Positions 1 through 19,027 of a stretch of DNA of 32,000 bases are shown piece after piece (positions within the stretch are counted from its first letter, which is position 1; each line of letters begins with the position of its first letter). The DNA comes from Trichlorobacter lovleyi SZ (GTDB taxonomy: Bacteria; Desulfobacterota; Desulfuromonadia; Geobacterales; Pseudopelobacteraceae): contig NC_010814.1 in NCBI RefSeq assembly GCF_000020385.1, positions 2,100,001 to 2,132,000 of the forward strand. The letters run 5' to 3'. A program made the translations under genes and the position numbers. The notes beneath the pieces were generated by a model. It was not told the origin of the DNA. It ran no database searches and worked only from the letters and a program-made list of their open reading frames with translations.

Positions 1-988
1 CTTTCTGCAGCACCAGGGCACTCCATTAACAATAGCGCAACAGGGGGCAACCGACCGCAACCTGCTTGCTGCCTATGGCTGTTCCTTATGCGGCCTGTGC
101 GATGCTGTCTGCCCGGAGGGACTCTCACCTTCCGATATGCTGCTTGGCATGCGTCAGGAAGCGGCAACACGCGGCTTGACGGATCTGAAAAAATACGCAC
201 CCTGGCTCAACTATGAGAAGCTGGGGGCATCCCTGTTCTTCCGGCGGGATCTGATCCCGACCGGTTGCACCACCGTTTTTTTCCCGGGCTGTTCTTTACC
301 CGGCACCAGACCGGATGCAGTGCTAGAGCTGTTCAAGCGTCTGCGCCTGATGGAACCAACCGCCGGCCTGGTTCTGGATTGCTGTGGTAAGATATCCCAT
401 GACCTGGGATTAACAGACCATTTCACCGCGCTCTTTGGACGGTTGTCAAAACGGTTACGGCACAAAGGTATCACCCGTATTCTCACCGCCTGCCCCGGCT
501 GCAGCAAGATTCTGCGTAACCATGGAGAAGAGTTTGATGTTACCAGTATCTATGAGGTGCTTGCTGCATGCACCGCACCCTCACGTCCTGCTTCTCCACT
601 CAAAGTCGTGACCATCCATGATCCCTGTCCGGCCCGGTTTGATCCGGCACAGCAAGCCGCTGTCCGGCAACTGGTACAATCTTGCGGGTACCGTATTGAA
701 GAACTGCCCTCCCACGGAACAACCACCCGCTGTTGTGGCCAGGGAGGTATGGTGGAAGGCTGCGTGACCAGTACCATCAAGCAGGAATCCGGGGTTATTG
801 CTGCCGAAGCTGCCGGTCGCCCGGTTATTTCCTCTTGTGCATCCTGCAGTGATAGCATTACAACAGCAACACCGGCAGGCCATGTTGTTGACCTGTTGTT
901 CAGTAAGACCGATTTTTCTGCTAAACCGGTCTCATCGGCCAGACGCTGGTTGAACCGTCTTAAACTGAGATGTGCGAGACTGACATGA
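1..988 (+). CDS. (Fe-S)-binding protein, HdrD/GlcF-like with two CCG cysteine-rich domains; 5' end lies outside the window
   Basis: The frame of the 137..988 ORF stays open back to nt 2 (no stop codon). The extension encodes CSLCGLCDAVCP, a CxxCxxCxxxCP 4Fe-4S motif. Two CCG motifs follow downstream (VLDCCGK and TTRCCGQGG), together with PGCS and DPCP motifs. Confidence 0.8.
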   Translation, partial: FLQHQGTPLTIAQQGATDRNLLAAYGCSLCGLCDAVCPEGLSPSDMLLGMRQEAATRGLTDLKKYAPWLNYEKLGASLFFRRDLIPTGCTTVFFPGCSLPGTRPDAVLELFKRLRLMEPTAGLVLDCCGKISHDLGLTDHFTALFGRLSKRLRHKGITRILTACPGCSKILRNHGEEFDVTSIYEVLAACTAPSRPASPLKVVTIHDPCPARFDPAQQAAVRQLVQSCGYRIEELPSHGTTTRCCGQGGMVEGCVTSTIKQESGVIAAEAAGRPVISSCASCSDSITTATPAGHVVDLLFSKTDFSAKPVSSARRWLNRLKLRCARLT

Positions 989-1716
989 ACATTCAACCAT
1001 TTTCAAGACACTTCAGGCTTCAAAAACTGGTCTTATGTTTAGTCTGGGAATCCTTTCCTTCCTCTGTAGTTCTGCGGCTCTGTGTTGCAATTTTGTTTTG
1101 CTTTGCATTTTTTTGTGTGGAGCCGGCCTTGGCAGACGAAGTCGCCATATCCCGCTTTGCAACAGAAGGACTCAAGGGCTGGGAGTCCAAGAGTTTCAAA
1201 GGCAGCACTGACTACACACTGGTGCAGGAAAACGGTCGCACCGTACTGAAGGCCCATGCCAAATCAGCTGCATCAGGCCTGTCAAAAAAGATTGCATTTC
1301 AACCTGCTACCTACCGCTATCTCAAGTGGAGCTGGAAAATATCCAATACCATTGCTCAGGGCAATGAAAAGAGCAAACAGGGTGATGACTATGCTGCCCG
1401 GGTCTATGTCGTCTTTCCAGGCCGGTTCTTCTGGCAGATGCGAGCCTTAAACTACATCTGGGCCAACAAACTGCCCAAAGGCGAATTTGTCCCCAACGCC
1501 TTTACCTCCAATGCCATGCTGATTGCAGTCGAATCCGGGCCGTCAAAAGCAGGACAGTGGGTTGCTGAAGAACGTGATATCCTGGCTGATTTTCGCCGTG
1601 TGTTTGGCGAAGAGCCGCACGAAGCAGGCGCCATTGCAATCATGACTGATACCGACAATACCGGTGCAGAGGCCACTGCCTGGTACGGAGATATCATCCT
1701 CTCGACAAACCGCTGA
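985..1716 (+). CDS. DUF3047-family exported protein
   Basis: The ATG at 985 overlaps the upstream stop (ATGA). There is a hydrophobic signal-like segment, VVLRLCVAILFCFAFFCVEPALA. The core LKWSWKI...GDDYAARVYVVF matches my recollection of DUF3047. The family call is from memory only. Confidence 0.65.
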   Translation: MNIQPFSRHFRLQKLVLCLVWESFPSSVVLRLCVAILFCFAFFCVEPALADEVAISRFATEGLKGWESKSFKGSTDYTLVQENGRTVLKAHAKSAASGLSKKIAFQPATYRYLKWSWKISNTIAQGNEKSKQGDDYAARVYVVFPGRFFWQMRALNYIWANKLPKGEFVPNAFTSNAMLIAVESGPSKAGQWVAEERDILADFRRVFGEEPHEAGAIAIMTDTDNTGAEATAWYGDIILSTNR

Positions 1717-2402: not shown

Positions 2403-2960
2403 ATGAAAATCATGCCACTGCTGGTTGGAGCGATCCTGTTGCCCCTCTTGCTGGCCTGCAGCAACAGTACAACCTCTACAGCCACCACAGCCGCAAAAAC
2501 AGCTTCTGAAGCAACGGTCAAAACCATCAAACTCTATTCCGTTGCCGACAAGGGGTACATCATGAGCGTCAAGGTGATCAAGACTGAAGAGGAATGGAAA
2601 AAGCTGCTGACCCCCCAACAATACAACGTTACCCGTGAAAAGGGTACTGAGGCACCGTTTAGTGGAGCGACCTGGAATACCCATGAAAAAGGTATCTATC
2701 GCTGCATCGGCTGCGGTAACGACCTGTTCAGTTCAGAACACAAGTTTGATTCAGGTACCGGCTGGCCCAGTTTCTGGCAGGCAATTGCACCTGAAAATGT
2801 GACCGAAAAGCCGGATAACAGCCTGTTCATGCGCCGTACCGAAGTGGTCTGCAGCCGCTGTGATGCCCACCTGGGCCATGTCTTCAATGACGGCCCAAAG
2901 CCGACCGGTCTGCGCTACTGCATGAATTCTGCCGCCCTGCAGTTTGTTAAGACCCCCTGA
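2403..2960 (+). CDS. msrB: peptide-methionine (R)-S-oxide reductase MsrB, lipoprotein
   Basis: Lipobox LLLACS. Zn-binding pairs CIGC and [13 protein letters not shown], and the catalytic RYCMNS motif. Confidence 0.92.
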
Positions 2961-4483
2961 TGCCTGCCGCCCCGCTGATACTGCCTGATACACCGCAAAA
3001 CAGGCAGCTGTCTGAAAATGTTCACCCCTGTCACTGGGTTAACCCGGAACCTGCTGAGCGGTACAATCTGGTGGTGATCGGTGCCGGAACAGCCGGTCTG
3101 ATCTGTGCTGCCGGGGCAGCAGGCCTGGGGGCAAAGGTCGCCCTGGTAGAACGCAACCTGATGGGAGGTGACTGCCTCAATACAGGCTGCGTGCCCTCCA
3201 AGGCCCTGATCCGTGCAGCCAGGGCGGTATATGATGCTCGTACCGTTTCCGAGTTTGGCATGCAGGACAGCAACCTTGCCGGCTTTGATTTCAAGGTTGC
3301 CATGGAGCGGATGCAACGCCTGCGTGCCGGCATCAGCCGGCACGATTCTGCCACACGGTTCCGGGATGAACTAGGAGTTGATCTGTTTATTGGCGAAGCA
3401 TGCTTCAGCGGGCCGGACAGTGTACATGTGGATGGTAAGACGCTGCAGTTTAAAAAGGCTGCCATCTGCACCGGAGCCCGGGCAGCGGCGCCACCTGTAC
3501 CCGGGCTGGCTGAAGCCGGGTATCTGACCAATGAGACGGTCTTTTCACTGACTGAACTCCCGCTTCACCTGGCGGTGATTGGGGCCGGTCCGATCGGTTG
3601 TGAGCTGGCCCAGACCTTTTGCCGCTTTGGCAGCAAGGTGACCCTGATTGAGCTGGCCCCCGCCATTCTGGGCCGGGAAGACCGTGATGCAGCCGCAATC
3701 CTGCAGGATGCCTTGATTCGTGAAGGAATTGACCTTCAGCTTGGCGTTAAAATTTCAGCAGTTGAATCCCGAGACGACCAGAAGATTCTGCATCTTGAGA
3801 AGGATGGACACGCCATAAAAATCACTGTTGATCAGATTCTGGTTGGCGTGGGCCGCGCCCCCAACATAGAAGAACTGGCACTGCAGACAGCCGGAGTCGC
3901 GTTTGACAGAAGCGGCGTAAAGGTCAATGACCAGCTGCAGACCACTAACGCGAACATCTATGCTGCCGGCGACGTCTGCTCGGCCTATAAGTTTACCCAT
4001 ATGGCCGATGCCCAGGCCCGGATCCTGCTGGCCAATGCCCTCTTCAAGGGCAGACAGAAGGTGTCGGACCTGATCGTGCCCTGGTGTACCTACACCGATC
4101 CGGAAATAGCACATGTGGGCATGTCCGAACAGGACGCAACAGCCAAAGGGATCAACGTAACCACTCTGACTATTCCGCTTTCTGATATTGACCGTGCGGT
4201 GTTGGATGGAGAAACAGAGGGGTTTGCCAGGGTTCACCTTCACAAAGACACTGACAGGATACTGGGGGCGACCATTGTGGCCCGTCATGCCGGCGAGATG
4301 ATCAATGAATTGACCCTGGCCATCACCAACAACCTTGGTTTAGGCGCCATTGCCCGAACCATCCACCCCTACCCCACCCAGGCAGAGGTGATCAAGAAGC
4401 TGGCTGATAGCTATAACCGTACCCGCCTGACACCGTTTTTGACCCGCCTTTTGTCAGGTTGGCTGAAATGGCAGAGGGGTTGA
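2960..4483 (+). CDS. FAD-dependent pyridine nucleotide-disulfide oxidoreductase (MerA/Lpd-like class I, not a true mercuric reductase)
   Basis: VVIGAGTAGL FAD fold. Redox-active GGDCLNTGCVPSK. A second dinucleotide fold, AVIGAGPIGCE. C-terminal dimerisation motif HPYPTQAEV. There is no NmerA domain and no C-terminal Cys pair. The start overlaps the msrB stop (TGATG). Confidence 0.88.
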   Translation: MPAAPLILPDTPQNRQLSENVHPCHWVNPEPAERYNLVVIGAGTAGLICAAGAAGLGAKVALVERNLMGGDCLNTGCVPSKALIRAARAVYDARTVSEFGMQDSNLAGFDFKVAMERMQRLRAGISRHDSATRFRDELGVDLFIGEACFSGPDSVHVDGKTLQFKKAAICTGARAAAPPVPGLAEAGYLTNETVFSLTELPLHLAVIGAGPIGCELAQTFCRFGSKVTLIELAPAILGREDRDAAAILQDALIREGIDLQLGVKISAVESRDDQKILHLEKDGHAIKITVDQILVGVGRAPNIEELALQTAGVAFDRSGVKVNDQLQTTNANIYAAGDVCSAYKFTHMADAQARILLANALFKGRQKVSDLIVPWCTYTDPEIAHVGMSEQDATAKGINVTTLTIPLSDIDRAVLDGETEGFARVHLHKDTDRILGATIVARHAGEMINELTLAITNNLGLGAIARTIHPYPTQAEVIKKLADSYNRTRLTPFLTRLLSGWLKWQRG

Positions 4484-5301: not shown

Positions 5302-5984
5302 AGAGTAAAAAAATCATCCTGGTTCTGACCGGCCTGGCCATTGTGGCCCTGTTCTTTTACCTTGATCTGGGCCGCTATCTGACCCTTGAGAGTCTCAAGG
5401 CCAACCGTCAACTGCTGCAAACATTCTATGCTGATCATACGCTGCTGATGGTGGCAGCCTTCATGGGGGTCTACATCATCCAGACCGGCCTGGCCCTGCC
5501 CGGGGCCACCATCCTGTCGCTCTCTGCAGGCGCCATCTTCGGGCCGGTCATGGGTACGGTCTACGCTGTCAGTGCCGCCTCCATCGGTGCCACCCTCGCC
5601 TTTCTGTTCACCCGCTACCTGCTGCGGGATGCCGTGCTCAGAAGATTCGGCAACAGGCTTGAAGGAATGAACAAGGAGCTTGAAGAACGTGGCATCAACT
5701 ACCTGTTATTCCTGAGGCTAGTCCCACTCTTTCCGTTCTTTTTAATCAATCTGGCTGCGGGGCTGACCCGGCTGCCTTTGCGCACCTTTATGCTGGGCAC
5801 CTTCTTTGGCATCATTCCGGGCGGCTTTGTCTATGTCAACGCCGGGGCAAGCCTGGCCTCCATCAATGACCTGTCTGACATCGCTTCAGCACGGGTGCTG
5901 GGCTCCTTTGCCCTGCTGGGATTGTTTGCGCTGATCCCGGCTCTGTATGCACAATTCAAGAACAGGAACACGACTACCCCATGA
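5298..5984 (+). CDS. TVP38/TMEM64 (DedA-superfamily, SNARE-associated-like) membrane protein
   Basis: The GTG start overlaps the upstream stop (GTGA). It is a polytopic hydrophobic protein. The motifs LFLRLVPLFPFFLINLAAGLT and FGIIPG are typical of the family as I recall it. Confidence 0.78.
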   Translation: MKSKKIILVLTGLAIVALFFYLDLGRYLTLESLKANRQLLQTFYADHTLLMVAAFMGVYIIQTGLALPGATILSLSAGAIFGPVMGTVYAVSAASIGATLAFLFTRYLLRDAVLRRFGNRLEGMNKELEERGINYLLFLRLVPLFPFFLINLAAGLTRLPLRTFMLGTFFGIIPGGFVYVNAGASLASINDLSDIASARVLGSFALLGLFALIPALYAQFKNRNTTTP

Positions 5985-8983
5985 CCTTTGATCCACCCCG
6001 TTGGACTCGTTTTCAAGTCGATAACACGGCTGTCTGGCTCTGCCCTGATCGTCCTACCTGGTTTGTCCCCACCGCACATGGTGACCGGTTGCTGCAGCAG
6101 ATGCCGACCGACACGGCCAGTCAGGATCTTGCAACCGCAACCTTCCTGCAAAGGCTGCCCGATCCGCCTGCAAACAGCTACCAGGGCCGCCAGACGCTGC
6201 TGGGTACTACGCCGAAGCTACGGGAACTCTGGCTGCATATCACGGATCGTTGCAACCTGTCCTGCAGCCACTGCCTGTTCAGTTCCGGCCCGGACCAGGG
6301 ACGTCAGCTCTCACTGCAACAACTGAAACAGCATATTGATGATGCAGCAGCCCAGGGATGCCGCCTGTTTGCCCTGACCGGTGGAGAACCGCTGGTGCAC
6401 CCTGATTTTGCCGAGCTGATCGGCCATATCCTGGCCATACCGGACAGCCGGATTGCCGTTCTGACCAATGGTCTGTCTGTGGCTGACAAACTGGCTGCTG
6501 ACTGGCCCAGGCAGCGGATTCACCTGCAGATCAGCCTTGACGGCAGACCTGAACACCACGACCTGCTGCGGGGGGCTGGCAGTTTCAAACAACTGGAACA
6601 GCAACTGACCTGGTTGCAACAGCAGCACTGGCACTTTACCCTTAGCTGTTGCGTCACCAAGGAAAATGCCCGCGACCTGACCTGGCTGGTTGACTATGCT
6701 GCGGATCAAGGGGCTGCTGCACTGCACCTGATGTGGCACTTTATCCGTGGCCGGGGCAGCGTTGCCCAGCATCTGCAGCCGCCGGAACTGCTACAACCGG
6801 TACTGGCTGCCCTGCTGCGGGCAGAACAACGGGGCATCACCATCGACAACATCGAAAACCTGAAAGCTCAGATCTTCTCAGCACCGGGTACGATCCACGA
6901 CGGCTCCAGTGCAGGCTGGGAGGCAGGGGCCATCGGCCCGGATAATCAACTCTACCCCTCTGCAGCCACCATCGGCCTTGCTGAGCTGGCAACCCCACTG
7001 GATCAGGGACTTGTGCAGGCCTGGCAGCAAAGCCCCATACTGGCTCGGATCAGGCAAACCAGTGTAGCCGGTCTTTCCGATCCCTGGCGTTTTCTGCTGG
7101 GTGGCGGTGACCTTGATCATTGTTACCATCACAATGGCAGCTTTGTCGGCACTGATCCCTACCAACCCCTGTTTGAACAGCTGTCTCTGCTGCTGATCAA
7201 ACAGGCGGCAAACCGATTGCCTGAAGCTGCACAACCCGGACTGCGCCTCAAGATGGGAGAGCTGCTGGTCAGCTGCGACAGTCACGGCCCGGTGGCGCTC
7301 TGTCACACCAATTGTCTCCTGACACTGGAACCTTTTGCCGACAGTCGCAGCCGGGTGGGCAGCTACTACGCCGAGGCTGTTGGAGACAAGCGGCTGGAGA
7401 TCCTGAATCCGGTTCATTACGATGAAAACATGATGCAGCACATTCCCGCTGCCTTCCGTTTCAGGGGGTATGGCTGCGGCAGCCCGGTGCTGGATGCCTG
7501 CCTCAGACCGGGTGAGCAGATGGTAGATCTGGGCTGCGGCAGCGGCGTGGAATGTTTTATTGCCGCCCGGCTGGTGGGAAAAGACGGCATGGTAACCGGC
7601 ATTGATATGCTGGAGCCGATGCTTGATCTGGCCCAAAAGGGCGCAATTGAAGTACAAGAGCACCTTGGCTATAACAACCTGCAGTTTTTAAAAGGTTTTC
7701 TCGAATCACTTCCTGTTGCCGACAACTCACAGGACCTGGTGGTTTCCAACTGCGTATTGAACCTGTCTACCGATAAACGCAGCACCTTCAGCGAGATCCT
7801 GCGCATCCTGAAGCCGGGGGGCAGACTGGTGGCAGCAGATGTGGTCTGCGAGACGGAACCTGATGCCGCTATCCTGAATGACGAAAACCTGCGGGGTGAA
7901 TGTATCAGCGGCGCCCTGACCCAGAAAGACCTGCTGGGTATCCTGGATGAAAGCGGTTTCACCGGTTTCAGTGTGATCAAGCGCCTGCCCTACCGGGTGG
8001 TAAACAACCACCCGTTCTTTTCACTGACCTTTTGCGTGCGGAAGCCGGAAAACAGTTCTGAAACCGTACTGATCCTCTACCCCGGCCCTGCAGCAGGCTT
8101 GCTGGCACCCTCAGGTGCCTGGCTGCAGCCAGGGCAGGTCAACCGGATATCCAGGCAGGATGCGGATTTACTGGGCACCCAGGTCTGGCATCTGGACAGC
8201 CACGGCTTTGTCACCAATGTGACCATTGAGGCTGGTGCCAACTGCTCAAGAGCGCCGGAAGGCCGCACCAGGACGGCTGCTCAACCCCCAAGCAGACATG
8301 ATAGCGGCTGCCTGGTCTGCGGCGCCCCCCTGGTCTACCATCCGTTTGAGCAACAGATCGCCTGTCATTTCTGCGGCAAGACGCTGTCAGCCAACGCCTG
8401 CTGTGAACAGGGGCACTTTGTCTGTGACAGCTGCCATACCGACGATGCCTTAAGCCTGATTGAACACCTCTGCACAACCAGCGGCGTATCTGACCCGATC
8501 CAACTCATGAAGGAGATCCGTCGGCATCCTTCCATTCCGCTCCACGGCCCCCAATATCATGCCCTGGTGCCAGGCGTTTTACTGGCCGGCCTGCGTGCTG
8601 CCGGACATCCGGTTACCACAGAACAACTTTTTGCCGCTATCCGGCGTGGTGGTGAGGTCGGTGGCGGCAGCTGTGGTTTCATGGGGATCTGCGGTGCAGC
8701 TACCGGTACAGGTATCGCATTTAGTGTGTTGTTGGAGGCGACACCTCTCAAGGCGGCCAGACGTCAGACCGTGCAACAGGTTGTGCAACAGGTGCTGGCC
8801 GAGATAGCGGGATATGAGGCAGCCCGCTGCTGTCAGCGTGATTGCTGGATCGCCCTGCGCACCGGAATGCGGCTTGCTGCAGAGCTGTTCAGCCTGAAGC
8901 TTCCTGCTGTTGAGCCTTTTTGCTGTACCCAGATGGCCCGAAATCATGAATGTCTGGGACTGGACTGCCCACTCTGGCCATAG
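5981..8983 (+). CDS. 1000-aa fusion protein: radical SAM domain + complete ArsM-type As(III) SAM-methyltransferase + zinc-ribbon + C_GCAxxG_C_C-like Cys-rich domain
   Basis: The ATGA start overlaps the TVP38 stop. Residues ~80-300 carry CNLSCSHC (CxxxCxxC) and LTGGEPL. Residues ~458-760 carry YYAEAV, YGCGSP, VDLGCGSG, SNCVLNLSTDK, LKPGGRL and GECISGAL, which are the three As(III)-binding Cys contexts of CmArsM, with the same 50-residue spacing between the last two. Residues ~775-1000 carry CLVC...CHFC...CC...CDSC, then GGGSCGFMGICGAATG and CCQRDC. Confidence 0.85.
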   Translation: MTFDPPRWTRFQVDNTAVWLCPDRPTWFVPTAHGDRLLQQMPTDTASQDLATATFLQRLPDPPANSYQGRQTLLGTTPKLRELWLHITDRCNLSCSHCLFSSGPDQGRQLSLQQLKQHIDDAAAQGCRLFALTGGEPLVHPDFAELIGHILAIPDSRIAVLTNGLSVADKLAADWPRQRIHLQISLDGRPEHHDLLRGAGSFKQLEQQLTWLQQQHWHFTLSCCVTKENARDLTWLVDYAADQGAAALHLMWHFIRGRGSVAQHLQPPELLQPVLAALLRAEQRGITIDNIENLKAQIFSAPGTIHDGSSAGWEAGAIGPDNQLYPSAATIGLAELATPLDQGLVQAWQQSPILARIRQTSVAGLSDPWRFLLGGGDLDHCYHHNGSFVGTDPYQPLFEQLSLLLIKQAANRLPEAAQPGLRLKMGELLVSCDSHGPVALCHTNCLLTLEPFADSRSRVGSYYAEAVGDKRLEILNPVHYDENMMQHIPAAFRFRGYGCGSPVLDACLRPGEQMVDLGCGSGVECFIAARLVGKDGMVTGIDMLEPMLDLAQKGAIEVQEHLGYNNLQFLKGFLESLPVADNSQDLVVSNCVLNLSTDKRSTFSEILRILKPGGRLVAADVVCETEPDAAILNDENLRGECISGALTQKDLLGILDESGFTGFSVIKRLPYRVVNNHPFFSLTFCVRKPENSSETVLILYPGPAAGLLAPSGAWLQPGQVNRISRQDADLLGTQVWHLDSHGFVTNVTIEAGANCSRAPEGRTRTAAQPPSRHDSGCLVCGAPLVYHPFEQQIACHFCGKTLSANACCEQGHFVCDSCHTDDALSLIEHLCTTSGVSDPIQLMKEIRRHPSIPLHGPQYHALVPGVLLAGLRAAGHPVTTEQLFAAIRRGGEVGGGSCGFMGICGAATGTGIAFSVLLEATPLKAARRQTVQQVVQQVLAEIAGYEAARCCQRDCWIALRTGMRLAAELFSLKLPAVEPFCCTQMARNHECLGLDCPLWP

Positions 8984-9062: not shown

Positions 9063-10016
9063 ATGATCTCTGCTGCAACCTACAGTGCTGTGACGGATCT
9101 GCCAACCCGACGATTTTTCCTCGGGTTTGCTCTGTTGTCTGTTATTCTGCTGCTGACCGGCTGTAACCCTCAATCTGCTGAAAAACCGTTGCAGTACAGC
9201 AAAACACCATCGGCAGCATTACCACCGGTCTACCGCTTTGCAGTCCATCCCCTGCATAATCCGGCAAAACTTGCTGAGGCCTATCAACCGCTGATCGAGT
9301 TTTTAAATCTTCATATCCCGGAAGCACACTTTGAACTGGAGGCCTCACGGGATTATCAGGCTTTTGAAGAAAAATACCGCACCCGACGCCCCGAATTCCT
9401 GTTGCCCAATCCCTGGCAATCGATTGAAGCCATGAAGAACGGCTACCAGGTGATTGCCATGGCCGGTGACGCAGAAGACTTCAAAGGACTCTTTATTGTC
9501 CGTAAAAACAGTCCGATCAAAAAGCCGGCCGATCTCAAGGGGAAGACCGTCAGTTACCCTTCCCCGACTGCCCTGGCAGCCTGCATCATGCCGCAGTACT
9601 TCCTGCATCAACAAGGTATTAACATTAACCGTGATATTACCAACATCTACGTGGGATCCCAGGAATCATCCATCATGAGTACCTACCTGGACCAATCCGC
9701 AGCAGGTGTCACCTGGCCGGTCCCCTGGCGGCTGTTTCAGCAGGACCACCCCCACGAAGCTGCCCAGCTTAAAGTACTTTGGGAAACGCCCTGTCTGCTG
9801 AACAACTCGGTGATGATACGTGATGATGTACCGTCAGTGATCAGCCGGAAGGTCAGACAACTGCTGCTTGATCTGCCACAAACAGCAGAAGGACGAGCTG
9901 TCTTGAGCAGTATGTCCACTACTCGTTTTCATGTCGCTGACAATGGAAGCTATCAAAAGGTACGTGACTATGTGACAGCCTTTGAAAAAGAGGTACGTCC
10001 GGTGGATACAAAGTGA
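9063..10016 (+). CDS. PhnD-like phosphate/phosphite/phosphonate-type periplasmic substrate-binding protein
   Basis: An N-terminal hydrophobic segment with LLLTGC (lipobox-like). It looks like a type-2 periplasmic binding protein of about 300 aa (YRFAVHP, GKTVSYPSPTALA). Its stop overlaps the downstream kinase start (GTGA). Confidence 0.75.
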   Translation: MISAATYSAVTDLPTRRFFLGFALLSVILLLTGCNPQSAEKPLQYSKTPSAALPPVYRFAVHPLHNPAKLAEAYQPLIEFLNLHIPEAHFELEASRDYQAFEEKYRTRRPEFLLPNPWQSIEAMKNGYQVIAMAGDAEDFKGLFIVRKNSPIKKPADLKGKTVSYPSPTALAACIMPQYFLHQQGININRDITNIYVGSQESSIMSTYLDQSAAGVTWPVPWRLFQQDHPHEAAQLKVLWETPCLLNNSVMIRDDVPSVISRKVRQLLLDLPQTAEGRAVLSSMSTTRFHVADNGSYQKVRDYVTAFEKEVRPVDTK

Positions 10017-12316
10017 TCTTCAACAGACTGACCTGGTTTCTGGCGGGTACGCTGCAACGGCGCATGGTTGCCGGCATGACACTGGTTATGGCAATCACCA
10101 TGTCCCTGTTTGTGCTGGACATGACCCGTCGCCAGGAAGCCGTTGCCCTGCAGCAGCATGTCCTGCAGGCACGTGCCTTAACCCAGAGTGTCTCAGCATC
10201 CTCGGCCGTCTGGGTTGCCTCACGGGATTACAGTGGGCTGCAGGAAATCATCGCAGCCCTTGAACACTATCCAAATCTGGCCCACGCCATTGTTCTTGAT
10301 TCCCGTGGTCAGGTTCTGGCGCACAGTGATCGCAAGCGGATCGGTCTCTATCTGACCGGTTTGCCCGATCAGCCATTATTGCAGGTTCTACAAAAGACTA
10401 TCCGCATGGTGGATGTTGCGAGTCCGATCCTGCTTGGCGGGAAACCGATCGGTTGGGTACGGATAGGCCTTAACGGTAAAGGGCTTGAGGCTGACATTGC
10501 CGAGATTCACCGCAACGGACTCATTTTTGCGCTGGCAGCAGTCATGCTGGGAGCCCTGCTCGCCGTGCTTACCGGTCGTTATCTGACCCGTCGGCTTGAT
10601 CTGATTCAAGAGGTGGTTGACCAGGTTGAGACAGGCAACGCAGATGTGCGTGTACAGCTTGCTGGAAACGATGAGGCTAAACGTCTCGGTCTTGCCGTGA
10701 ATGCGATGCTCGACGCACTATCCCAACGTGCTGAATCTCTGCAGCAGAGTGAACAGCGCTTCCGATCGATGATAGAAAACGCCGGCGACGCTATTTACAT
10801 CCACGATCACAACGGAAAGATACTGAGTGCCAACCAGGTCTGCTGTTGTCAAACCGGCTATACTCTTGATGAACTGTTGATGTCTCCTGTGTCATTGGTA
10901 GACAGACAGATTGACGTGCAGACTTTAGAAGAAATCTGTCGCCTGGCTACGGCAGCCCCTGCCAGATTCCCCATGACACTGAAAACTGTTCACACTCGCA
11001 AGGATGGCAGCAGTTTTCCGGTCGAGGTGCGCCTCAGTCTGCTCCCGGCAGGTGATGATGTGCATTTCGTTGCCATGGTGCGCGATATCACCGAGCGCAA
11101 GCGTGCTGAGGACGAGTTGCTGCGTGCCAAGGCTGCCGCCGAAACGGCCAATACCACCAAGAGCGAATTTCTGGCCAATATGAGCCACGAAATCCGTACC
11201 CCGATGAACGGGGTGATCGGTAATGCCCAGCTGCTCCGTTTTACCGATCTGACCGAAGAACAGTCCCGCTACCTCGAATATATCGAAGCTGATGCCAAGC
11301 ATCTGGTTTCGGTTATCAATGACCTGCTTGATATCTCCAAGATTGAGGCAGGCAAGATGGAGCTTGAGCAGACCTCATTCAGTCTGCGCGGCTGCATCAA
11401 TGACCTGTTGAAACCAATGACTCCGAGGATTGCAACCAAGGGGCTGATCTTCAATACCGAGATTGCCAACACGGTCCCGGATGCCTTGACCGGAGATCAG
11501 CTCAGACTGAAACAGATCCTTCGTAATCTGGTAGGCAATGCCATCAAGTTTACCGATCAGGGATCTATCACATTGCGGGTCGAACTGCTTGAACACTCAG
11601 AAAACAAGGCATTATTTTATTTCAGTGTGATTGACACCGGCATCGGCATCCCTCAAGAAGCACTTGAAAGGTTGTTTACCCCCTTTACCCAGGCTGACAG
11701 TTCAGTAACACGAAAGTTCGGAGGAACCGGCCTGGGGCTGTCAATCTGCAACCGGCTGGCCGGGTTGATGGGAGGCAACATTTCCGTTGAAAGCAGCGAA
11801 GGTGCAGGAAGTTGTTTCCATGTCACCCTGCCGTTTCAGACCAGGCAAGCCGGGACATTACCGCAGGAGGAGCCGCTTCAAGCCAACACCTCACCGGGAT
11901 GGCAGGGGACACCGCTCACCATCCTGCTGGTGGACGACAGTCAGACCAGCCAGATCATGGCAGCGAACCTGCTGCGCCATTTCGACCACAGGGTAGAGAC
12001 CGCTGAAAATGGAGCAGATGCTTTGGAACAGTGGCGCAAAGACTCATTTGACATTATTCTGATGGATATCCAGATGCCGGTGATGGACGGTCTTGAGGCC
12101 ATGCGCATCATCCGCGAAGAAGAGCGCACAACCAACCGCCATACCGCCATCATTGCCCTGACCGCCCATGCCCTGGTTGAACAGCGCAATCATCTACTCT
12201 CCTCCGGCTTTGATGGTTATGTCTCAAAGCCGTTGGATATTGCTGTGTTGCATACTGAAATGAAGCGGGTACTGAACCCGAAAACAGATACTCCAGAATA
12301 CTGTCGATTGGATTAA
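10013..12316 (+). CDS. hybrid sensor histidine kinase (2 TM periplasmic sensor-HAMP-PAS-HisKA-HATPase-REC)
   Basis: H-box [15 protein letters not shown]. ATPase motifs LVGNAIKFT, DTGIGI and GGTGLGLSI. Receiver motifs ILLVDD, ILMDIQMPVMDG and YVSKP. Confidence 0.9.
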   Translation: MIFNRLTWFLAGTLQRRMVAGMTLVMAITMSLFVLDMTRRQEAVALQQHVLQARALTQSVSASSAVWVASRDYSGLQEIIAALEHYPNLAHAIVLDSRGQVLAHSDRKRIGLYLTGLPDQPLLQVLQKTIRMVDVASPILLGGKPIGWVRIGLNGKGLEADIAEIHRNGLIFALAAVMLGALLAVLTGRYLTRRLDLIQEVVDQVETGNADVRVQLAGNDEAKRLGLAVNAMLDALSQRAESLQQSEQRFRSMIENAGDAIYIHDHNGKILSANQVCCCQTGYTLDELLMSPVSLVDRQIDVQTLEEICRLATAAPARFPMTLKTVHTRKDGSSFPVEVRLSLLPAGDDVHFVAMVRDITERKRAEDELLRAKAAAETANTTKSEFLANMSHEIRTPMNGVIGNAQLLRFTDLTEEQSRYLEYIEADAKHLVSVINDLLDISKIEAGKMELEQTSFSLRGCINDLLKPMTPRIATKGLIFNTEIANTVPDALTGDQLRLKQILRNLVGNAIKFTDQGSITLRVELLEHSENKALFYFSVIDTGIGIPQEALERLFTPFTQADSSVTRKFGGTGLGLSICNRLAGLMGGNISVESSEGAGSCFHVTLPFQTRQAGTLPQEEPLQANTSPGWQGTPLTILLVDDSQTSQIMAANLLRHFDHRVETAENGADALEQWRKDSFDIILMDIQMPVMDGLEAMRIIREEERTTNRHTAIIALTAHALVEQRNHLLSSGFDGYVSKPLDIAVLHTEMKRVLNPKTDTPEYCRLD

Positions 12317-12319
12317 AAC

Positions 12320-13627
12320 ATGAGTCTGCAACAGACAGATCTGCCCCTGATACTGCTGGTTGATGATGTCCCCTCTAACCTGCACCTGCTGGTGGCGGCG
12401 TTAAAGGATGATTACCGGATCAAAACTGCTGTCAGTGGCCAGGCCGCTCTGGAGCTGGCAGCCCGTGAAGACCGTCCTGAGCTGATACTGCTGGATATAA
12501 TGATGCCGGAAATGAACGGGATTGAGGTGCTGCGCAGGTTGCGCGACACCCCTGACACTGCCGGAATTCCGGTTATCTTTGTTACAGCCGACAACTCTGA
12601 GCAAAGCCAATTAAGTGGCTTGGAGCTGGGCGCGGATGATTACCTCACCAAACCGGTGGTTACTGCTGTGCTGAAGGTGCGTGTCCGTAACCTTCTGCAG
12701 CGTAAGCGTATAGAACGGGAACTTCGCCTTGCCAGTCACGTCTTCAACTACAGTGGTGAAGCGATCATGATCACCGACCGCTCAAACCGGATCATTGAGG
12801 TTAACGCTGCCTTTACCCGGCAGACCGGGTACCTGTTGGAGGAGGTACAGGGGCAGGACCCTAAGATACTTTCTTCCGGCCGCACCAGTCCGGAAGAGTA
12901 CCGCTCAATGTGGCAGAGTCTTCATGATGAGGGGTTTTGGCAGGGAGAGCTGTGGGACCGCAGGAAAGACGGGGGCGTGTATCCTAAACTACTGACTATC
13001 TCAGTTGTCCGAAACTCCAAGGGGCAGATTGATTTCCATATCGGCAGTTTTACCGATATCTCCCGCCAGAAGACCGTAGAGGCGGAAATCCGTCATGTTG
13101 CCAATCATGACTACCTGACCGGTCTGCCCAACAGGATGTACGTTCAAGTGGTGCTGGAACAGACCATGACCCTGGCACGGCGTGAGCATACCGAAATTGC
13201 CGTGATGTTTATTGATCTTGATCGTTTCAAAAACATCAACGACACCTTTGGACATGCTGTGGGGGATGGGCTTTTGATACAGGTTGCGGCACGGCTCAAA
13301 CAAAGCGTACGGGAAAGCGATCTGGTGGCCAGGCTTGGCGGAGATGAATTCGTGGTGGTGATGACCAGTCACCTGACGGTTAATGGCGAAATTACCGTGG
13401 CGCAAAAAATCCTGGAAAACCTGTCACTCCCGTATCAGGTCGGTGAACTGACCTTGCACAGCCCCCCCAGTATCGGCATCAGCCGTTACCCTTTTGATGC
13501 ACTGTCCGTCGAGGAGCTTATGAAGCATGCTGATATGGCCATGTATCAGGTCAAACAGTCCGGCAGAGGGCAGTACCGTTTTTTTGAGCCGGCACACGCG
13601 GCCGGCACCCCGGAACAGCCCGCATGA
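12320..13627 (+). CDS. response regulator REC-PAS-GGDEF diguanylate cyclase
   Basis: Receiver motifs ILLVDD, LLDIMMPEMNG and DYLTKP. PAS region FNYSGEAIMITD. Active-site motif RLGGDEFVV, with an RxxD I-site (RESD) five residues upstream. Confidence 0.9.
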   Translation: MSLQQTDLPLILLVDDVPSNLHLLVAALKDDYRIKTAVSGQAALELAAREDRPELILLDIMMPEMNGIEVLRRLRDTPDTAGIPVIFVTADNSEQSQLSGLELGADDYLTKPVVTAVLKVRVRNLLQRKRIERELRLASHVFNYSGEAIMITDRSNRIIEVNAAFTRQTGYLLEEVQGQDPKILSSGRTSPEEYRSMWQSLHDEGFWQGELWDRRKDGGVYPKLLTISVVRNSKGQIDFHIGSFTDISRQKTVEAEIRHVANHDYLTGLPNRMYVQVVLEQTMTLARREHTEIAVMFIDLDRFKNINDTFGHAVGDGLLIQVAARLKQSVRESDLVARLGGDEFVVVMTSHLTVNGEITVAQKILENLSLPYQVGELTLHSPPSIGISRYPFDALSVEELMKHADMAMYQVKQSGRGQYRFFEPAHAAGTPEQPA

Positions 13628-16600
13628 CCAGTACCTCTTTTACCAAAAGTCCGCCTCGCCACTGGGCCATCTTCAGCCTTACCGTACTGATGCTGGGCCT
13701 GTTGCTGTTTTTGTATCTTTTCCGGGAGCACGAACGGGCAGGGATGCGTGAGCAAGAGCAACTTCTGCGAAAAGCTGAGATCATCAGTAAAAATACGGCT
13801 TGGAACCTGGAGTCGCTGAACAAGCTTTTGCTCAGTCTGCAAAAAGATCCTGCCCTGCTGGCAAATGACCCCGGTTATAATCAACGTTTTGAAGACCTGG
13901 CAAATGCCATGCCCGGTATTCGCACCATAGTGCGGCTGGATGCCCTGGGCATCACCCGCCTCTCCAGCAGGGCTGAACTGCTGGGTAAAGGCTTCAGTGA
14001 CCGTGATTACTTCCTGATTCCGCAGCAACAGGCCGGTAAGGAGTTGCTATATGTCTCACCCCCTTTCAGGACAGCCCTGAACACCTATGTGATCAACCTG
14101 AGCAGGTCACTACGCAATCCTGACGGCAGCTTTGCCGGCGTCATTGCAGCCTCCCTTGATCCTGATTACTTCAGCAGCCTGCTTTTATCCGTCTTGTACG
14201 CACCGGACATGCGTTCTGCACTGGCGCACTGGGATGGCCTGCTCTTTCTCATGGAACCCGGCCACAAAGAATTTATCGGAAAAAACCTGGCCGTCCCGGG
14301 CAGTTTCTTCAGCAGGCACCGTGCGAGCGGCAAGCAACAAACGGTGCACACCGGCACTGTCTACGCCACCGGCAGAAACCAGATGATGGCACAGATCACC
14401 ATCCAGCCCGAATCGCTGAAGATGAACAAGCCGTTGGTGGTGGCGGTTTCCCGTGATCTTGACGTTGTGTATGCCGACTGGCGGAGCGAAGCAATTCTAC
14501 TGGGATCGCTGTTTCTGCTGTCTGCAACCGTAGCCGGTTTTACCCTGCATTTTTTCCACAAACGGCATGAGGAGTTTACCCGGCAGAAAGCGGCGTCGGA
14601 TGAAAGTATCCGTAAACTGAATGAGGAGCTGGATCGGTTCTTCAGCATGGCCCTGGATATGCTCTGCATAGCAGATCTGGATGGCCACTTCAAGCGGTTG
14701 AACCGTTCCTGGGAAGAAACACTCGGCTATGCCCTTGACGAGCTGACCGGGAAACAGTTTCTTGAGTTTATCCATCCCGATGACATTCCGGCTACCCTGG
14801 CAGCCCTGTCCGATCTGGATGCAAACAAACAGATTCTCAATTTTATCAATCGCTACCGTTGCAAGGATGGCTCCTACCGCTGGATCGAATGGCGTTCAAC
14901 CCCCTGTGCCAACCTGATTTATGCTGCTGCACGGGACATTACTGAACGTAAGAACGCCGAAGCCGCACTTGAGGAGAGTGAACGGTTCATGCGGGTGTTG
15001 ACCGACATCATTCCCGGCATGGTGGGCTACTGGGACAGAGATTTACATAACCGCTTTGCCAATATTGCCTACCTGGAGTGGTTTGGAAAAACATCTGAGC
15101 AGATGCGCGGCATCCATATTCGAGACCTGATGGGTGACGAGCTGTTCGCTAAAAATGAACCATACATGCGGGCAGCGCTGAACGGAGAACGGCAACGCTT
15201 TGAACGCACCCTCACCAAGGCTGACGGCAGCATTGGTTATACCTGGGCCCACTATATACCGGATATCGCCAATGGACAGGTCAGGGGCTTCTTTGTCCTG
15301 GTATCTGATATTACGGAACTGAAACTGACCCAGCTGCAACTGGAGCAACGTACAAAAGAGGCCGAAGCTGCCAATCGGGCAAAATCAGAATTCCTCGCCA
15401 ATATGAGCCACGAGATCCGCACCCCGATGAACGCCATTCTTGGGTTGACCAGACTGGTGCTTGAGACCGAGCTTGATCCGCGCCAGAGGGATTTTCTGCT
15501 CAAGGTCTACAATGCATCGCAAGCTCTGATGGAAATCCTGAATGATATTCTTGACTATTCAAAAATCGAAGCCGGCCGGGTTGAAATAGAACAGTTACCG
15601 ATCTCTGTGGAAGAGGTTGTCAGGAATACCATGGGGTTGTTCAGGGCTAAAATTGAAGAAAAAGGGCTTGCCACCATCATGGAACTCGCCTCTTCCCTCC
15701 CTGCTGTGCTTCAGGGCGACCCGATGCGCCTGTCACAAGTGCTCAACAACCTGGTGGGAAATGCCGTCAAGTTTACCGAAAGCGGAGAGATCCGCATCAT
15801 GGTTGAACAGATACAAGAAGACTGTAGAACGGTTACGCTCTGTTTTTCCGTGCAGGATACCGGCATCGGCCTCGACAAAGATGAAACAGCCCGGTTGTTC
15901 CAGGCCTTTACCCAGGCTGACAGCACCATCAGCCGCAAATACGGTGGCACCGGATTGGGGTTGACCATCTGCCAAAGACTGGTTGGACTGATGGGAGGTT
16001 CCATCAGCGTCTCAAGCCTAAAAGGAGTTGGCAGCACCTTCAGTTTTGTCATTCAGATGGGTAAAGTTCCCCCGGGTACCCAGGCAAAGAAACTGCATGC
16101 CTTTGCTGACGGTGCAATGGGTACACCAGATTCTTTGGCAGTTTTATCAGCGCACCAGAAGAAGCTTGAACTGAACAGGCTGCGTGTCCTGCTGGTGGAA
16201 GACAACCGGATCAATCAGGAGGTGGCTGCCGAGATACTACAGCAATACGGCGCACAGGTTACCCTTGCCGACCATGGTGCTGCTGCGCTTGAGCTGCTTA
16301 CCGGCCCCGGCTTTGACGTTGTTCTGATGGACCTGCATATGCCGGTAATGGACGGATTTGAAGCCACCCGCAAAATCAGGGAGCTGTACGATAGTGCAAC
16401 CCTGCCGGTGATTGCCATGACCGCTGCAGTCTTGCAGGATGACCGTGAGCGCTGTACTGCAGCAGGCATGGTGGATTTTGTAGCCAAACCGATCAACCCG
16501 CTGGAACTGGTGACTGTGCTGAAACGTTTTCAAAAAACAAGTTCACCATCATCAGTACCTCATGAGGCTGCGATCTCCCCCTTTGAGCCGAGTGATCCCG

Positions 16601-17211
16601 ATTCGGCGCTACCAAGTTTAGATGTCGCAACCGCCCTGCGTCGAATGGGCGGTCACAGCGAATTATTGAACAGCCTGTTAAAATCCTTTGCAAAGGAGCA
16701 CGGCCTGTCGGCAGATGAGCTTAAAGCCTTGCTGTCTGAAGGTAAAACAGATGACGCGCTGCACCTGGCCCATAACATAAAAGGCGTTTCCGGAACCGTT
16801 GGGGCAGTACGGCTGATGCAGGCGGCTGCAGCGTTGGAACAGCAACTGCGTTCAGATCCACGTCAGGCAGACCTGGACCTGTTTACCCGCGAGCTGGAGC
16901 TGGGCTTGTCTGCCATCAATCGTTATCTGCTCAGCCAGGAGCGGACCGTAACCGCTCCTGGCGGCGACCATACGCCACTTGATTATGAAAAACTGCATCC
17001 CTTGTTGCAGGAACTGACCACCTATCTGCGTGAACAGGAGCTTGCTCCTGAACAGCTGCTGCAGCAGATCGTAAAGCTATCTGCCGGCACAGACAGCCCG
17101 TTACTCGCAAATCTGCTGCGTCAGCTGGACCGTTTTGACCATGCCGGCGCACTTGAGACAGTACAACAGCTCATTGCCGGGCTGACAGAGCAGCCCCACC
17201 AGCCACGATGA
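13624..17211 (+). CDS. hybrid sensor histidine kinase (Cache-like periplasmic domain-TM-2xPAS-HisKA-HATPase-REC-Hpt)
   Basis: The ATGA start overlaps the upstream stop. [30 protein letters not shown] and GGTGLGLTI. Receiver motifs VLLVEDN and [12 protein letters not shown]. Hpt motif [12 protein letters not shown]. Confidence 0.9.
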
Positions 17212-17888
17212 AGATTTCCGTTATCATTCCGGTACTGCATGAGCAGGATCAGATCAACGGGATCATCAGACATCTGCGTTCCATTGATCCTGACGTTGAA
17301 ATTATCGTAGTTGACGGCGATCCAGGCGGTTCAACCATTGCGGTTATTGCTGACGGCACAGTGTTCCGGCTTGGCTCATCCATTAAAGGACGCGGCAATC
17401 AGCTGGCTGCAGGAACCGCCACTGCCAGCGGCGATATCCTGTTGATGCTGCATGCAGATACGTTTTTACCGTCTCATGCCTTCAGTTCCATCCTGACTGC
17501 GGTCAGCAGAGGAACTGACTGGGGCGCCTTCCGCCTGGGTATTGATGCCACCTCCCCCCTGTATCGTGTGATTGAAAGGTTTGTTGATCTGCGCTGTAAA
17601 CTGTTTGCGCTTCCTTATGGTGACCAGGCCATCTTTGTCCGTAGAGTTGCCTTGCAGGAGATCGGTGGCATTCCCGCCATTCCGCTGATGGAGGATGTGG
17701 CGTTGGCCCGCAAACTCCGGCAGACCGGCTTCAGGTTTGCTATGCTGTCCGAACGGGTGAGCACCTCTCCCCGCCGTTGGCAAAAGGATGGAGTTATTCG
17801 TCGCACTCTACATAACTGGCTATTGTTATTGCGTTATCTATGCGGCACAGAACCGGAAGAACTGACGAAATGGTACCGCCCGAACTAA
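17208..17888 (+). CDS. family-2 glycosyltransferase of the TIGR04283 type (rSAM/selenodomain-associated transferase 2; arsenosugar-associated)
   Basis: The ATGA start overlaps the kinase stop. [43 protein letters not shown] and TSPRRW match my recollection of this family's conserved blocks. Confidence 0.8.
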   Translation: MKISVIIPVLHEQDQINGIIRHLRSIDPDVEIIVVDGDPGGSTIAVIADGTVFRLGSSIKGRGNQLAAGTATASGDILLMLHADTFLPSHAFSSILTAVSRGTDWGAFRLGIDATSPLYRVIERFVDLRCKLFALPYGDQAIFVRRVALQEIGGIPAIPLMEDVALARKLRQTGFRFAMLSERVSTSPRRWQKDGVIRRTLHNWLLLLRYLCGTEPEELTKWYRPN

Positions 17889-17984
17889 CACGGTCCGGTC
17901 CCAGGTTACTACTGCAGGCAGTTACAGGCCAACCGTCTATTCAACCAGATTCATATGAGAGAAATATACATAGGGAGGTACACC

Positions 17985-18961: not shown

Positions 18962-18990
18962 TTGACAAAACAGACCAAAGCCTGAATGAT
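18962..18990 (+). promoter_or_regulatory. sigma-70-like promoter candidate for the M3 peptidase gene
   Basis: TTGACA (18962-18967), a 17-nt spacer, then AATGAT (18985-18990). The -10 box covers the track ATG at 18986, which favours the SD-preceded ATG at 19028 as the real start. Confidence 0.4.
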
Positions 18991-19027
18991 GGCAACCTCA
19001 GAGAAAACCACCAAGGAGCCATCATAC

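Follow-up and report, generated by a model that had tools for sequence, protein, structure and literature searches.

We analyzed a stretch of 32,000 nucleotides from the genome of Trichlorobacter lovleyi SZ, a species previously placed in Geobacter (contig NC_010814.1, positions 2,100,001 to 2,132,000 of the forward strand), which is referred to as the window throughout and in which all nucleotide positions are counted from the first letter. The gene of interest encodes a single protein of 1000 amino acids, in which a radical S-adenosylmethionine (SAM) module is followed by an ArsM-like SAM-dependent methyltransferase and by a C-terminal zinc-ribbon and DUF5714 module. Its ATG start codon shares the sequence ATGA with the stop codon of the VTT/DedA gene directly upstream. 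From the consecutive accessions in this genome (ACD95695.1 is Glov_1979), we infer that the locus tag of the fusion gene is Glov_1985. The features of the fusion are listed below, with amino acid residues abbreviated as aa.

5981..8983, +, whole fusion open reading frame (ORF), 1000 aa, uninterrupted; identical to WP_012470040.1, ACD95701.1 and UniProt B3E2P4
5981..6160, +, N-terminal domain, aa 1-60; predicted beta-beta-beta-alpha-alpha fold of RRE/PqqD-like topology; W27 and R58-L59-P60 invariant
6224..6880, +, radical SAM core (Pfam PF04055), aa 82-300; cluster ligands C91, C95 and C98 (nucleotides 6251-6274); GGEP at aa 134-137
6881..7351, +, SPASM-derived extension, aa 301-457; cluster cysteines all lost; GGGDxDH at aa 374-380 and DPY at aa 392-394
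7352..8230, +, ArsM-like SAM methyltransferase, aa 458-750; ArsM N-terminal, Rossmann and C-terminal domains
7475-7477, 7751-7753 and 7901-7903, +, codons of C499, C591 and C641, the equivalents of the As(III) ligands in the alignment with CmArsM
8231..8302, +, predicted disordered linker, aa 751-774; confidence of about 34 in the structure model, the sole long disordered stretch
8303..8440, +, double zinc-ribbon-like segment, aa 775-820; predicted sites C777/C780/C795/C798 and C808/H812/C815/C818
8459..8977, +, DUF5714, aa 827-999; all-helical; C898, C904, the vicinal pair C950-C951, C982, C991 and C996 conserved

Domain composition and spread of the fusion protein

The original prediction, made from the sequence of the window, had described one uninterrupted fusion frame whose contiguity was still to be checked. 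The contiguity is confirmed by an identical RefSeq protein and by the wide occurrence of colinear homologues. The exact protein is present in GenBank and RefSeq for the closed T. lovleyi SZ genome and for several other T. lovleyi assemblies, under the names "DUF5714 domain-containing protein" (NCBI) and "Methyltransferase type 11" (UniProt). Colinear homologues of about 1000 amino acids make up the best 120 of at least 664 clusters at 90% identity. The full-length architecture was identified in 214 of 185,579 species-representative genomes, closed chromosomes among them, and hundreds of metagenome contigs also encode colinear homologues of this size. The hosts are mostly Desulfuromonadota (Geobacter, Trichlorobacter, Desulfuromonas, Desulfuromusa, Malonomonas and Syntrophotalea), with further representatives in Chlorobium, Pirellulaceae, Victivallales, Anaerolineales, Desulfobacterales and Desulfovibrionales. 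The identical database entries and the homologues in 214 species genomes rule out a frameshift, an artefact of sequencing or assembly, or the chance joining of separate genes in one ORF, explanations to which we assign practically no probability.

The architecture had also been put forward as one not known to be described, and the searches agree. No publication was found on DUF5714, on the accessions of the fusion or on a fusion of ArsM with a radical SAM enzyme, a mention in the selenoprotein papers of Haft (MbdU, ArsM-fusion selenoproteins) being possible. No NCBIfam model reaches its cut-off on the fusion protein, nor on a fusion of reversed domain order that is described below. Conservation was assessed in an alignment of 95 homologues with 50-87% identity to the fusion (alignment A2), and residues called invariant below are invariant in this set. 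The AlphaFold2 (AF2) model of the 1000 residues, computed on the same alignment, has a mean predicted local distance difference test score (pLDDT) of 86.2 and a predicted template modelling score (pTM) of 0.74. Homologous proteins are denoted by P and genome loci that were compared by L, each followed by a number.

The radical SAM core predicted earlier from the cysteine pattern C91-x3-C95-x2-C98 and the GGEP motif was recovered by Pfam over residues 87-236 (Radical_SAM PF04055, E = 2.6e-20, 73.7 bits against a cut-off of 29.5). The three cysteines and G134-G135-E136-P137, which represent the cluster and the SAM site, are invariant, and so is C127. The best NCBIfam relatives of the module are MftC, Rv1681, ScmE, NirJ2 and StsB, and its structural neighbours in a Foldseek search are SkfB (372 columns), SuiB (437-459 columns), PqqE (TM-score 0.69 by target length) and BlsE. 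The ArsS model TIGR04167 scored 50.8 bits against a cut-off of 300 and matched profile positions 6-145 of 303 only, which is the generic core, and DUF3641 (PF12345) gave no Pfam match in the fusion at E values up to 1. Membership of the ArsS family was therefore rejected, in line with the original prediction that the radical SAM domain looks different from that of ArsS.

The N-terminal domain was modelled with confidence (pLDDT 81-96), and residues 17-63 align with the corresponding region of P0415, one of the two proteins with the reversed domain order. Foldseek alignments to the RRE-bearing SuiB and SkfB cover almost the entire target, and the Pfam search of the N-terminus gave no match to PqqD/RRE (PF05402). 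The earlier assignment of a PqqD/RRE-like N-terminus is tentative, with support only from the predicted topology and from the alignment to structures of maturases of ribosomally synthesized and post-translationally modified peptides (RiPPs), and not from a Pfam match.

Past the core, the BLASTP alignment with P0415, which has an intact SPASM domain, places a residue other than cysteine opposite each SPASM cysteine (...HDGSSAG..., ...YPSAA..., ...LGGGD... and ...DPYQ... in the fusion), and Pfam found no SPASM match (PF13186) in the fusion. Since every SPASM cysteine of P0415 faces a non-cysteine, residues 301-450 represent a former SPASM domain without auxiliary clusters. The family-specific invariant residues of this region are D307, D321, Y325, R358, D377, D379, D392 and Y394. 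The sole conserved cysteines of the radical SAM module beyond the core are C432 and C445. They belong to a motif that ends the module, C432-x2-H435-G-x-V-x3-H442-x-N-C445 (window 7274-7315), and that is also present in P0351. Both cysteines are invariant, H435 and H442 nearly so, and the pLDDT there is 66-74; the four residues could form a small Cys2His2 metal(loid) site. We conclude that the radical SAM module belongs to a degenerate RRE-SPASM-type lineage and not to ArsS.

The methyltransferase domain was recognized by Pfam as Methyltransf_31 over residues 509-658 (E = 4.6e-29). Its best NCBIfam match was the ArsM model PRK11873/NF008823 with 196.3 bits (E = 6.8e-58) against a cut-off of 263, followed by the arsinothricin ArsM (153 against 500), the ArsM-fusion selenoproteins (about 130) and the arsenosugar ArsM (110 against 400), and the best methyltransferase family outside ArsM reached 77 bits only. 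The top sequence match in the PDB was CmArsM (4FR0, E = 1e-32), and the printed alignment places C499, C591 and C641 opposite C72, C174 and C224 of that protein. These three cysteines are invariant, as are D516, G518, G520 and G522 of the SAM motif DLGxGxG. Of two extra cysteines, C623 is near-invariant and C755, which lies in the linker past the end of the domain (nucleotides 8243-8245), is invariant. With the full AF2 model as the query, ranks 1-13 of the Foldseek search were all ArsM or AS3MT structures (E about 1e-17, 26-31% identity, TM-scores of 0.55-0.65 by target length). The alignments span 275-305 columns of targets with 300-333 residues, which indicates that the model also includes the N- and C-terminal domains of ArsM.

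The original prediction of a complete ArsM stands for the three-domain fold, the three As(III) cysteines and CmArsM as the best match; a fourth cysteine, that of CmArsM C44, appears to be missing and the cut-offs were not reached. Likewise, the placement of the central region in the ArsM clade is upheld in that ArsM families are by far the best matches. The curated ArsM families do not include the region, however, and we describe it as ArsM-like.

The C-terminal domain had been compared with the C_GCAxxG_C_C redox family, with DUF5714 mentioned as a possible counterpart. The former family (PF09719) scored 15.5 bits against a cut-off of 27 (E = 0.018) and was rejected as sub-threshold, whereas DUF5714 (PF18978) matched over profile positions 1-173 of 173 with 192.6 bits against a cut-off of 26.2 (E = 5e-57). 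Its seven cysteines are invariant. The preceding segment contains three CxxC motifs together with C808 and H812, rather than the four CxxC motifs read earlier, and Pfam returned a weak Zn_ribbon_PriA match there. All eight Cys and His residues of the zinc ribbon are invariant in the fusions and also in stand-alone homologues (alignment A3), proteins of 225-270 amino acids that consist of the two modules together. In a model computed on the stand-alone alignment (pLDDT 92.6, pTM 0.86), the zinc ribbon forms a beta-hairpin and precedes a bundle of eight helices. Foldseek found no relative of DUF5714 in the PDB, the best match having E = 0.93 and TM-scores of at most 0.24 by query and 0.36 by target length.

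Profile positions 39-265 of 468 in the selenoprotein model MbdU (NF045648) match the DUF5714 region with 139 bits against a cut-off of 600. The ORF of the fusion contains no in-frame TGA, and the two selenocysteines by which MbdU is defined are accordingly absent. A review gives the selenocysteine motif of MbdU as 'CU'; by this motif, and not by an alignment, we infer that it corresponds to C950-C951, in which case the pair would be the functional centre.

The gene contexts of five stand-alone DUF5714 proteins were heterogeneous. One of the five adjoins a radical SAM gene, and the notion that DUF5714 is always the partner of a radical SAM enzyme is therefore not supported. In that locus (L083, 5794-7819, Desulfatiglans sp. 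JAAZBV010000115.1), a zinc-ribbon/DUF5714 protein of 272 amino acids is encoded directly after a radical SAM gene of 400 codons, which shares just the core with the module of the fusion, and a small methyltransferase and an AMP-binding enzyme are encoded nearby. Some stand-alone DUF5714 proteins carry, in JGI, the KEGG orthology assignment of the MJ0619-type radical SAM methylase.

With residues 1-460 as the query, an exhaustive phmmer search collected 107 clusters at 50% identity (E < 1e-30), which were sorted by length and Pfam content into four forms. Besides full fusions of about 1000-1080 amino acids, these are radical SAM-methyltransferase proteins without DUF5714 (740-850 amino acids, such as P0360), the radical SAM module by itself (P0351, 474 amino acids) and two metagenome proteins of reversed order, P0415 and P0426 (681-705 amino acids). 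The latter begin with an ArsM-like domain that has a Cys-rich N-terminus and the full cysteine set, and continue with the small N-terminal domain, the radical SAM core and an intact Pfam SPASM domain. In BLASTP, P0415 matches the fusion with 28% identity in the radical SAM module (E = 1e-51) and 35% in the methyltransferase (E = 9e-38). Two independent fusion orders are classical evidence that the joined modules, here the radical SAM and ArsM-like modules, work together. The last 50 residues of P0360 (798 amino acids) contain two vicinal cysteine pairs (..DCC.. and ..ACC..), resembling the CC tails with which MerA/ArsD-type proteins deliver metal(loid)s and paralleling C950-C951 of DUF5714.

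Gene neighbourhood in the window and in other genomes

The genes on both sides of the fusion are listed below. The counts refer to a sample of 82 genome loci carrying the fusion; L088, L089 and L090 are contexts that were retrieved via homologues of the family 2 glycosyltransferase (GT2).

137..988, +, CCG-domain (heterodisulfide-reductase-like Cys-rich) protein (Pfam); 10 of 82 loci
970..1716, +, DUF3047 protein (Pfam, E = 2e-69); 15 of 82 loci; also beside ArsS or the transferases in L088, L089 and L090
1716..2384, +, MsrA (Pfam)
2403..2960, +, MsrB (Pfam)
2960..4483, +, pyridine-nucleotide disulfide oxidoreductase (NCBI 'mercuric reductase'); 6 of 82 loci; adjoins DUF2064 in L088
4459..5301, +, FA_hydroxylase (sterol-desaturase-type membrane di-iron protein), its ends overlapping the neighbours; 5 of 82 loci; also in L089
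5298..5984, +, VTT/DedA (TVP38/TMEM64) membrane protein, its stop overlapping the start of the fusion; 15 of 82 loci; also in L089
9063..10016, +, PhnD-like (periplasmic) binding protein, sensor block (Pfam)
10013..12316, +, hybrid histidine kinase, sensor block (Pfam)
12320..13627, +, response regulator with PAS and GGDEF domains, sensor block (Pfam)
13624..17211, +, second hybrid histidine kinase (Pfam), the last gene of the sensor block (9063..17211)
17208..17888, +, GT2, TIGR04283 'arsenosugar biosynthesis glycosyltransferase', 231 bits against a cut-off of 182; 100% identity with the T. lovleyi protein
18341..18958, +, DUF2064, TIGR04282 'arsenosugar biosynthesis glycosyltransferase', 201 bits against a cut-off of 134

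Both transferases carry the name 'arsenosugar biosynthesis glycosyltransferase' at NCBI and 'rSAM/selenodomain-associated transferase' at JGI, and the TIGR04283 and TIGR04282 families are recognised partners of ArsS. Of the 82 loci, 18-19 contain a DUF2064 gene and 12 a GT2 gene at a distance of up to 7 kb from the fusion gene. The order fusion-GT2-DUF2064 or fusion-DUF2064-GT2, often with touching or overlapping frames, was observed in Geobacter-like, Desulfuromusa, Desulfobacterales, Victivallales and Anaerolineales genomes. In 37 of the 82 loci, the fusion has one or more cassette genes within 10 kb, and a compact arrangement is exemplified by L012, CCG-DUF3047-VTT-fusion-GT2-DUF2064. Canonical ArsS was found at none of the 82 loci by tblastn with the ArsS of L088, a search that covered the loci themselves.

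The contexts retrieved via GT2 contain the same accessory genes, either around ArsS or by themselves. L088 contains GT2-ArsS(Radical_SAM+DUF3641)-DUF3047...DUF2064-oxidoreductase, L089 contains GT2-HTH-DUF3047-patatin-DUF2064-FA_hydroxylase-VTT, and L090 contains DUF3047-GT2-DUF2064. Because the same accessory genes surround ArsS and the fusion, we conclude that, in an ArsS-type cassette, the fusion stands where the radical SAM enzyme would otherwise be. De novo clustering of the neighbours showed that most of the other recurrent families (aldolase, GAPDH-like, LysR, ABC ATPase) reflect lineage-specific synteny.

Additional observations were made on individual cassette genes. In T. ammonificans (L087, OW150024.1, 8669-9697), a TIGR04282-type DUF2064 domain is fused to SelR/MsrB in a protein of 342 amino acids. 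Together with MsrA and MsrB in the cluster of the window, this fusion suggests that Msr-type enzymes belong to the cassette, where they perhaps reduce As=O or S=O. The sensor block precedes GT2-DUF2064 in three Trichlorobacter-type genomes, namely in the window, in L087 (1-7983) and in L093 (3764-10004), and may regulate the transferases. Between GT2 and DUF2064 the window contains a 133-aa ORF with a signal-peptide-like N-terminus (17955-18356, +), at a place where L093 has two small unannotated genes. Upstream of the CCG and DUF3047 genes in eight fusion loci (among them L009, L011, L012 and L036) lies a gene for a small secreted rhodanese-like protein of about 139 amino acids, which was identified solely by reading its sequence.

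Proposed function and competing explanations

Our tentative proposal, to which we give slightly less than an even chance, is that the fusion is a single-polypeptide organo-arsenical synthase, which combines the roles of ArsM and ArsS in an arsenosugar-type cassette of anaerobes. In the ArsM-like domain, the thiolates of C499, C591 and C641 would bind As(III) or methylarsenite, and the domain would methylate the arsenic with SAM, probably up to dimethylarsenite. The radical SAM domain would reductively cleave a second SAM at the [4Fe-4S] cluster bound by C91, C95 and C98. A carbon radical, most simply the 5'-deoxyadenosyl radical as in ArsS, would then add to the trivalent methylated arsenic and form a further C-As bond, to yield a product that may resemble 5'-deoxy-5'-dimethylarsinoyl-adenosine. 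ArsS itself adenosylates dimethylarsenite, DMAs(III), to 5'-deoxy-5'-dimethylarsinoyl-adenosine (DDMAA) via a 5'-deoxyadenosyl radical (PMC13598754). Both SAM-binding sites of the fusion look intact, since CX3CX2C, GGEP and DLGxGxG are all invariant.

The single chain may serve to keep the toxic and oxidisable intermediate bound between the methylation and the radical step, as a form of channelling. The zinc-ribbon/DUF5714 module, on its flexible linker, is a candidate metal(loid)-binding or Fe-S/redox accessory, and it may replace the auxiliary clusters lost from the degenerate SPASM domain or deliver As(III). Further processing of the product would fall to the two transferases (TIGR04283 and TIGR04282) and to the cassette's membrane proteins. 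The organo-arsenical chemistry guessed at in the original prediction gains independent support from the two transferase genes in the window and from the ArsS-type cassette neighbours, which point to arsenic as the probable substrate.

A number of observations weigh against this proposal, and several concern the protein itself. Neither the fusion nor the family consensus has a cysteine between Y463-Y464 and G498-C499, which we take to be the stretch where the fourth conserved ArsM cysteine (C44 of CmArsM, C32 of the human enzyme) falls. This N-terminal cysteine is needed for the first methylation of As(III), and fungal ArsMs with three cysteines act on methylarsenite but do not methylate arsenite. 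The fusion may therefore carry out the first methylation in another way, or this step may take place elsewhere. The methyltransferase domain remains under every curated NCBIfam ArsM cut-off, the radical SAM domain resembles ArsS in the common core only, and no sequence feature specifies adenosylation. Other observations concern the neighbourhood. Over half of the 82 loci have no cassette gene within 10 kb of the fusion, and some GT2-DUF2064 pairs (in L087, L090 and L093) have no ArsS and no fusion close by. The transferases of the window lie 8 kb from the fusion, beyond the sensor block, and the close relative L093 has the sensor-GT2-DUF2064 block without the upstream fusion block. The word 'arsenosugar' in the names of TIGR04282 and TIGR04283 is itself derived from comparative genomics, and the window contains no arsenic-resistance genes.

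A first alternative is an organo-arsenical enzyme whose radical chemistry differs from that of ArsS. Arsenic would be bound and methylated by the ArsM-like domain, and hydrogen abstraction by the radical SAM domain from another substrate such as a lipid or sugar, or transfer of a different fragment to it, would give an arsenolipid-type or otherwise new product. The radical SAM module descends from SPASM/RRE enzymes that usually abstract hydrogen (MftC, SkfB, PqqE and SuiB), and the invariant residues of the former SPASM domain, from D307 to Y394, point to a dedicated site for a second substrate. FA_hydroxylase, VTT/DedA and patatin also recur as neighbours with a relation to membranes or lipids. 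However, the most conserved partners are the two ArsS-linked transferases, which are explained most simply by a ribosyl or adenosyl intermediate, and the neighbour clustering placed no acyl-carrier or lipid-synthesis genes consistently next to the fusion. We consider such chemistry unlikely, if still credible. In a more far-reaching version, which we regard as quite improbable, the fusion founds a new class of radical SAM enzymes that form C-metalloid bonds. Methylated arsenic held by the cysteine triad would be combined with a carbon radical other than adenosyl, located for instance on a lipid or sugar acceptor, in the cluster-less pocket of the former SPASM domain, and DUF5714 would be a previously unseen metal(loid) or Fe-S fold.

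The substrate could also be another soft metalloid, a metal or a thiol or selenol (Se, Te, Sb, Hg or a small sulfur compound), with the cassette serving in redox processes and detoxification in general. The position of the methyltransferase domain outside the curated ArsM equivalogs is consistent with this, as are the redox neighbours (MsrA, MsrB, the 'mercuric reductase'-like oxidoreductase, the CCG protein and rhodanese) and the related selenoproteins ArsM/AhpD, ArsM/DUF2284 and MbdU, which a review links to 'organometallic' or metal-binding roles. Yet the geometry of the three-cysteine As(III) site is conserved exactly, the best structure and sequence matches are all arsenic methyltransferases, and ArsS, as the sole experimentally anchored member of the cassette, acts on arsenic (PMC13598754). 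A substrate other than arsenic is therefore distinctly unlikely in our view. As for a RiPP-type maturase, the RRE-like N-terminus would recruit a peptide that the radical SAM domain cross-links or epimerises and the methyltransferase methylates. The predicted topology of the N-terminal domain fits an RRE, the N-terminal half is structurally nearest to SkfB, SuiB and PqqE, and the best NCBIfam matches are MftC, StsB and ScmE. Nevertheless, no conserved small ORF adjoins the gene in the 82 loci, where the search for precursors among ORFs of 25-95 amino acids within 1.5 kb gave only alternative-frame noise from a conserved aldolase gene, and the flanking genes often overlap the fusion and leave no space for a precursor gene. 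The auxiliary-cluster cysteines that such maturases require are all lost, a PqqD/RRE Pfam match is lacking, and the invariant arsenic-ligand triad would be left unexplained, which makes a RiPP maturase highly improbable.

Comparison with known systems and further features of the window

The fusion shares the three-domain fold, the SAM motifs and the three As(III) cysteines with ArsM and AS3MT (CmArsM 4FR0/4FS8, CrArsM 5EVJ and human AS3MT 8XT7). It differs from them in the apparent lack of an equivalent of C44, in its scores below the cut-offs and in the extra cysteines C623 and C755. Unlike stand-alone ArsM, the domain also sits between the radical SAM and the zinc-ribbon/DUF5714 modules. With ArsS (TIGR04167), the fusion has in common the CX3CX2C core, a Cys-rich C-terminal appendage and the partners TIGR04283, TIGR04282, DUF3047 and disulfide oxidoreductase. 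In contrast to ArsS, it lacks DUF3641, which the ArsS of L088 has; its radical SAM module is of the RRE and SPASM-derived lineage and is joined to a methyltransferase.

Another related system is the ArsL-ArsM pair of arsinothricin synthesis, in which a radical SAM enzyme and an ArsM-type methyltransferase build C-As bonds on the same arsenic, as we propose for the fusion. The arsinothricin ArsM model is the second-best NCBIfam match of the fusion and covers the C-terminal domain too, but the known proteins are separate and the score of 153 is far under the cut-off of 500. ArsL is described as a noncanonical radical SAM enzyme that transfers a 3-amino-3-carboxypropyl group (bioRxiv 10.1101/2024.02.01.577332).

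The best structural and profile relatives of residues 1-450 are the RRE/SPASM maturases SuiB, SkfB, PqqE, MftC and StsB, which have the same order of small domain, TIM barrel and extension. In contrast to these, the fusion has neither the SPASM cysteines nor matches to PF13186 and PF05402, nor a precursor peptide gene. The reversed proteins P0415 and P0426 differ from the fusion in that they put the methyltransferase first, keep the N-terminal Cys-rich motifs and SPASM, and lack the zinc-ribbon/DUF5714 module. Stand-alone DUF5714 proteins and MbdU share with the fusion the Cys-His pattern of the zinc ribbon and DUF5714, but the contexts of the former are heterogeneous and the MbdU score is far below its cut-off. 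Set against these systems, three elements of the fusion look new, namely a cluster-less descendant of SPASM, a fold without a solved relative and the coupling of two SAM-dependent chemistries in a single chain.

Few enzyme types, namely ArsM/AS3MT, ArsS and ArsL, are known to form C-As bonds in biology. If our proposal is true, the fusion would be a fourth such type and the first to combine methylation with radical chemistry in a single polypeptide. It is found in Geobacter-, Desulfuromonas- and Chlorobium-type anaerobes, which dominate arsenic-cycling sediments and paddy soils. The gene is likely to be counted as 'arsM' in motif-based surveys because it carries the YGCG, SNCV and GEC motifs, and such counting could mislead inference on which organisms methylate arsenic. 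The enzymology of arsenolipid-type compounds in anaerobes is not known to have been described, and if the radical were non-adenosyl, the fusion would provide a biosynthetic entry to such compounds. For enzyme evolution, it is a natural case of loss of the SPASM clusters combined with the gain of a new Cys-rich domain, and DUF5714 adds a confidently predicted fold with no solved relative. The hypothesis is directly testable, as T. lovleyi SZ is cultured and has a closed genome.

Scans of the window for Rfam families and tRNAs gave no match. Predicted promoter and terminator sites were no commoner than in shuffled sequence and are uninformative about the limits of operons. Downstream of DUF2064, the window encodes an M3 oligoendopeptidase (18986-20806), a beta-class carbonic anhydrase (20912-21616) and ClpB (22975-25575), which show synteny with L093 and probably have no connection with the cluster.

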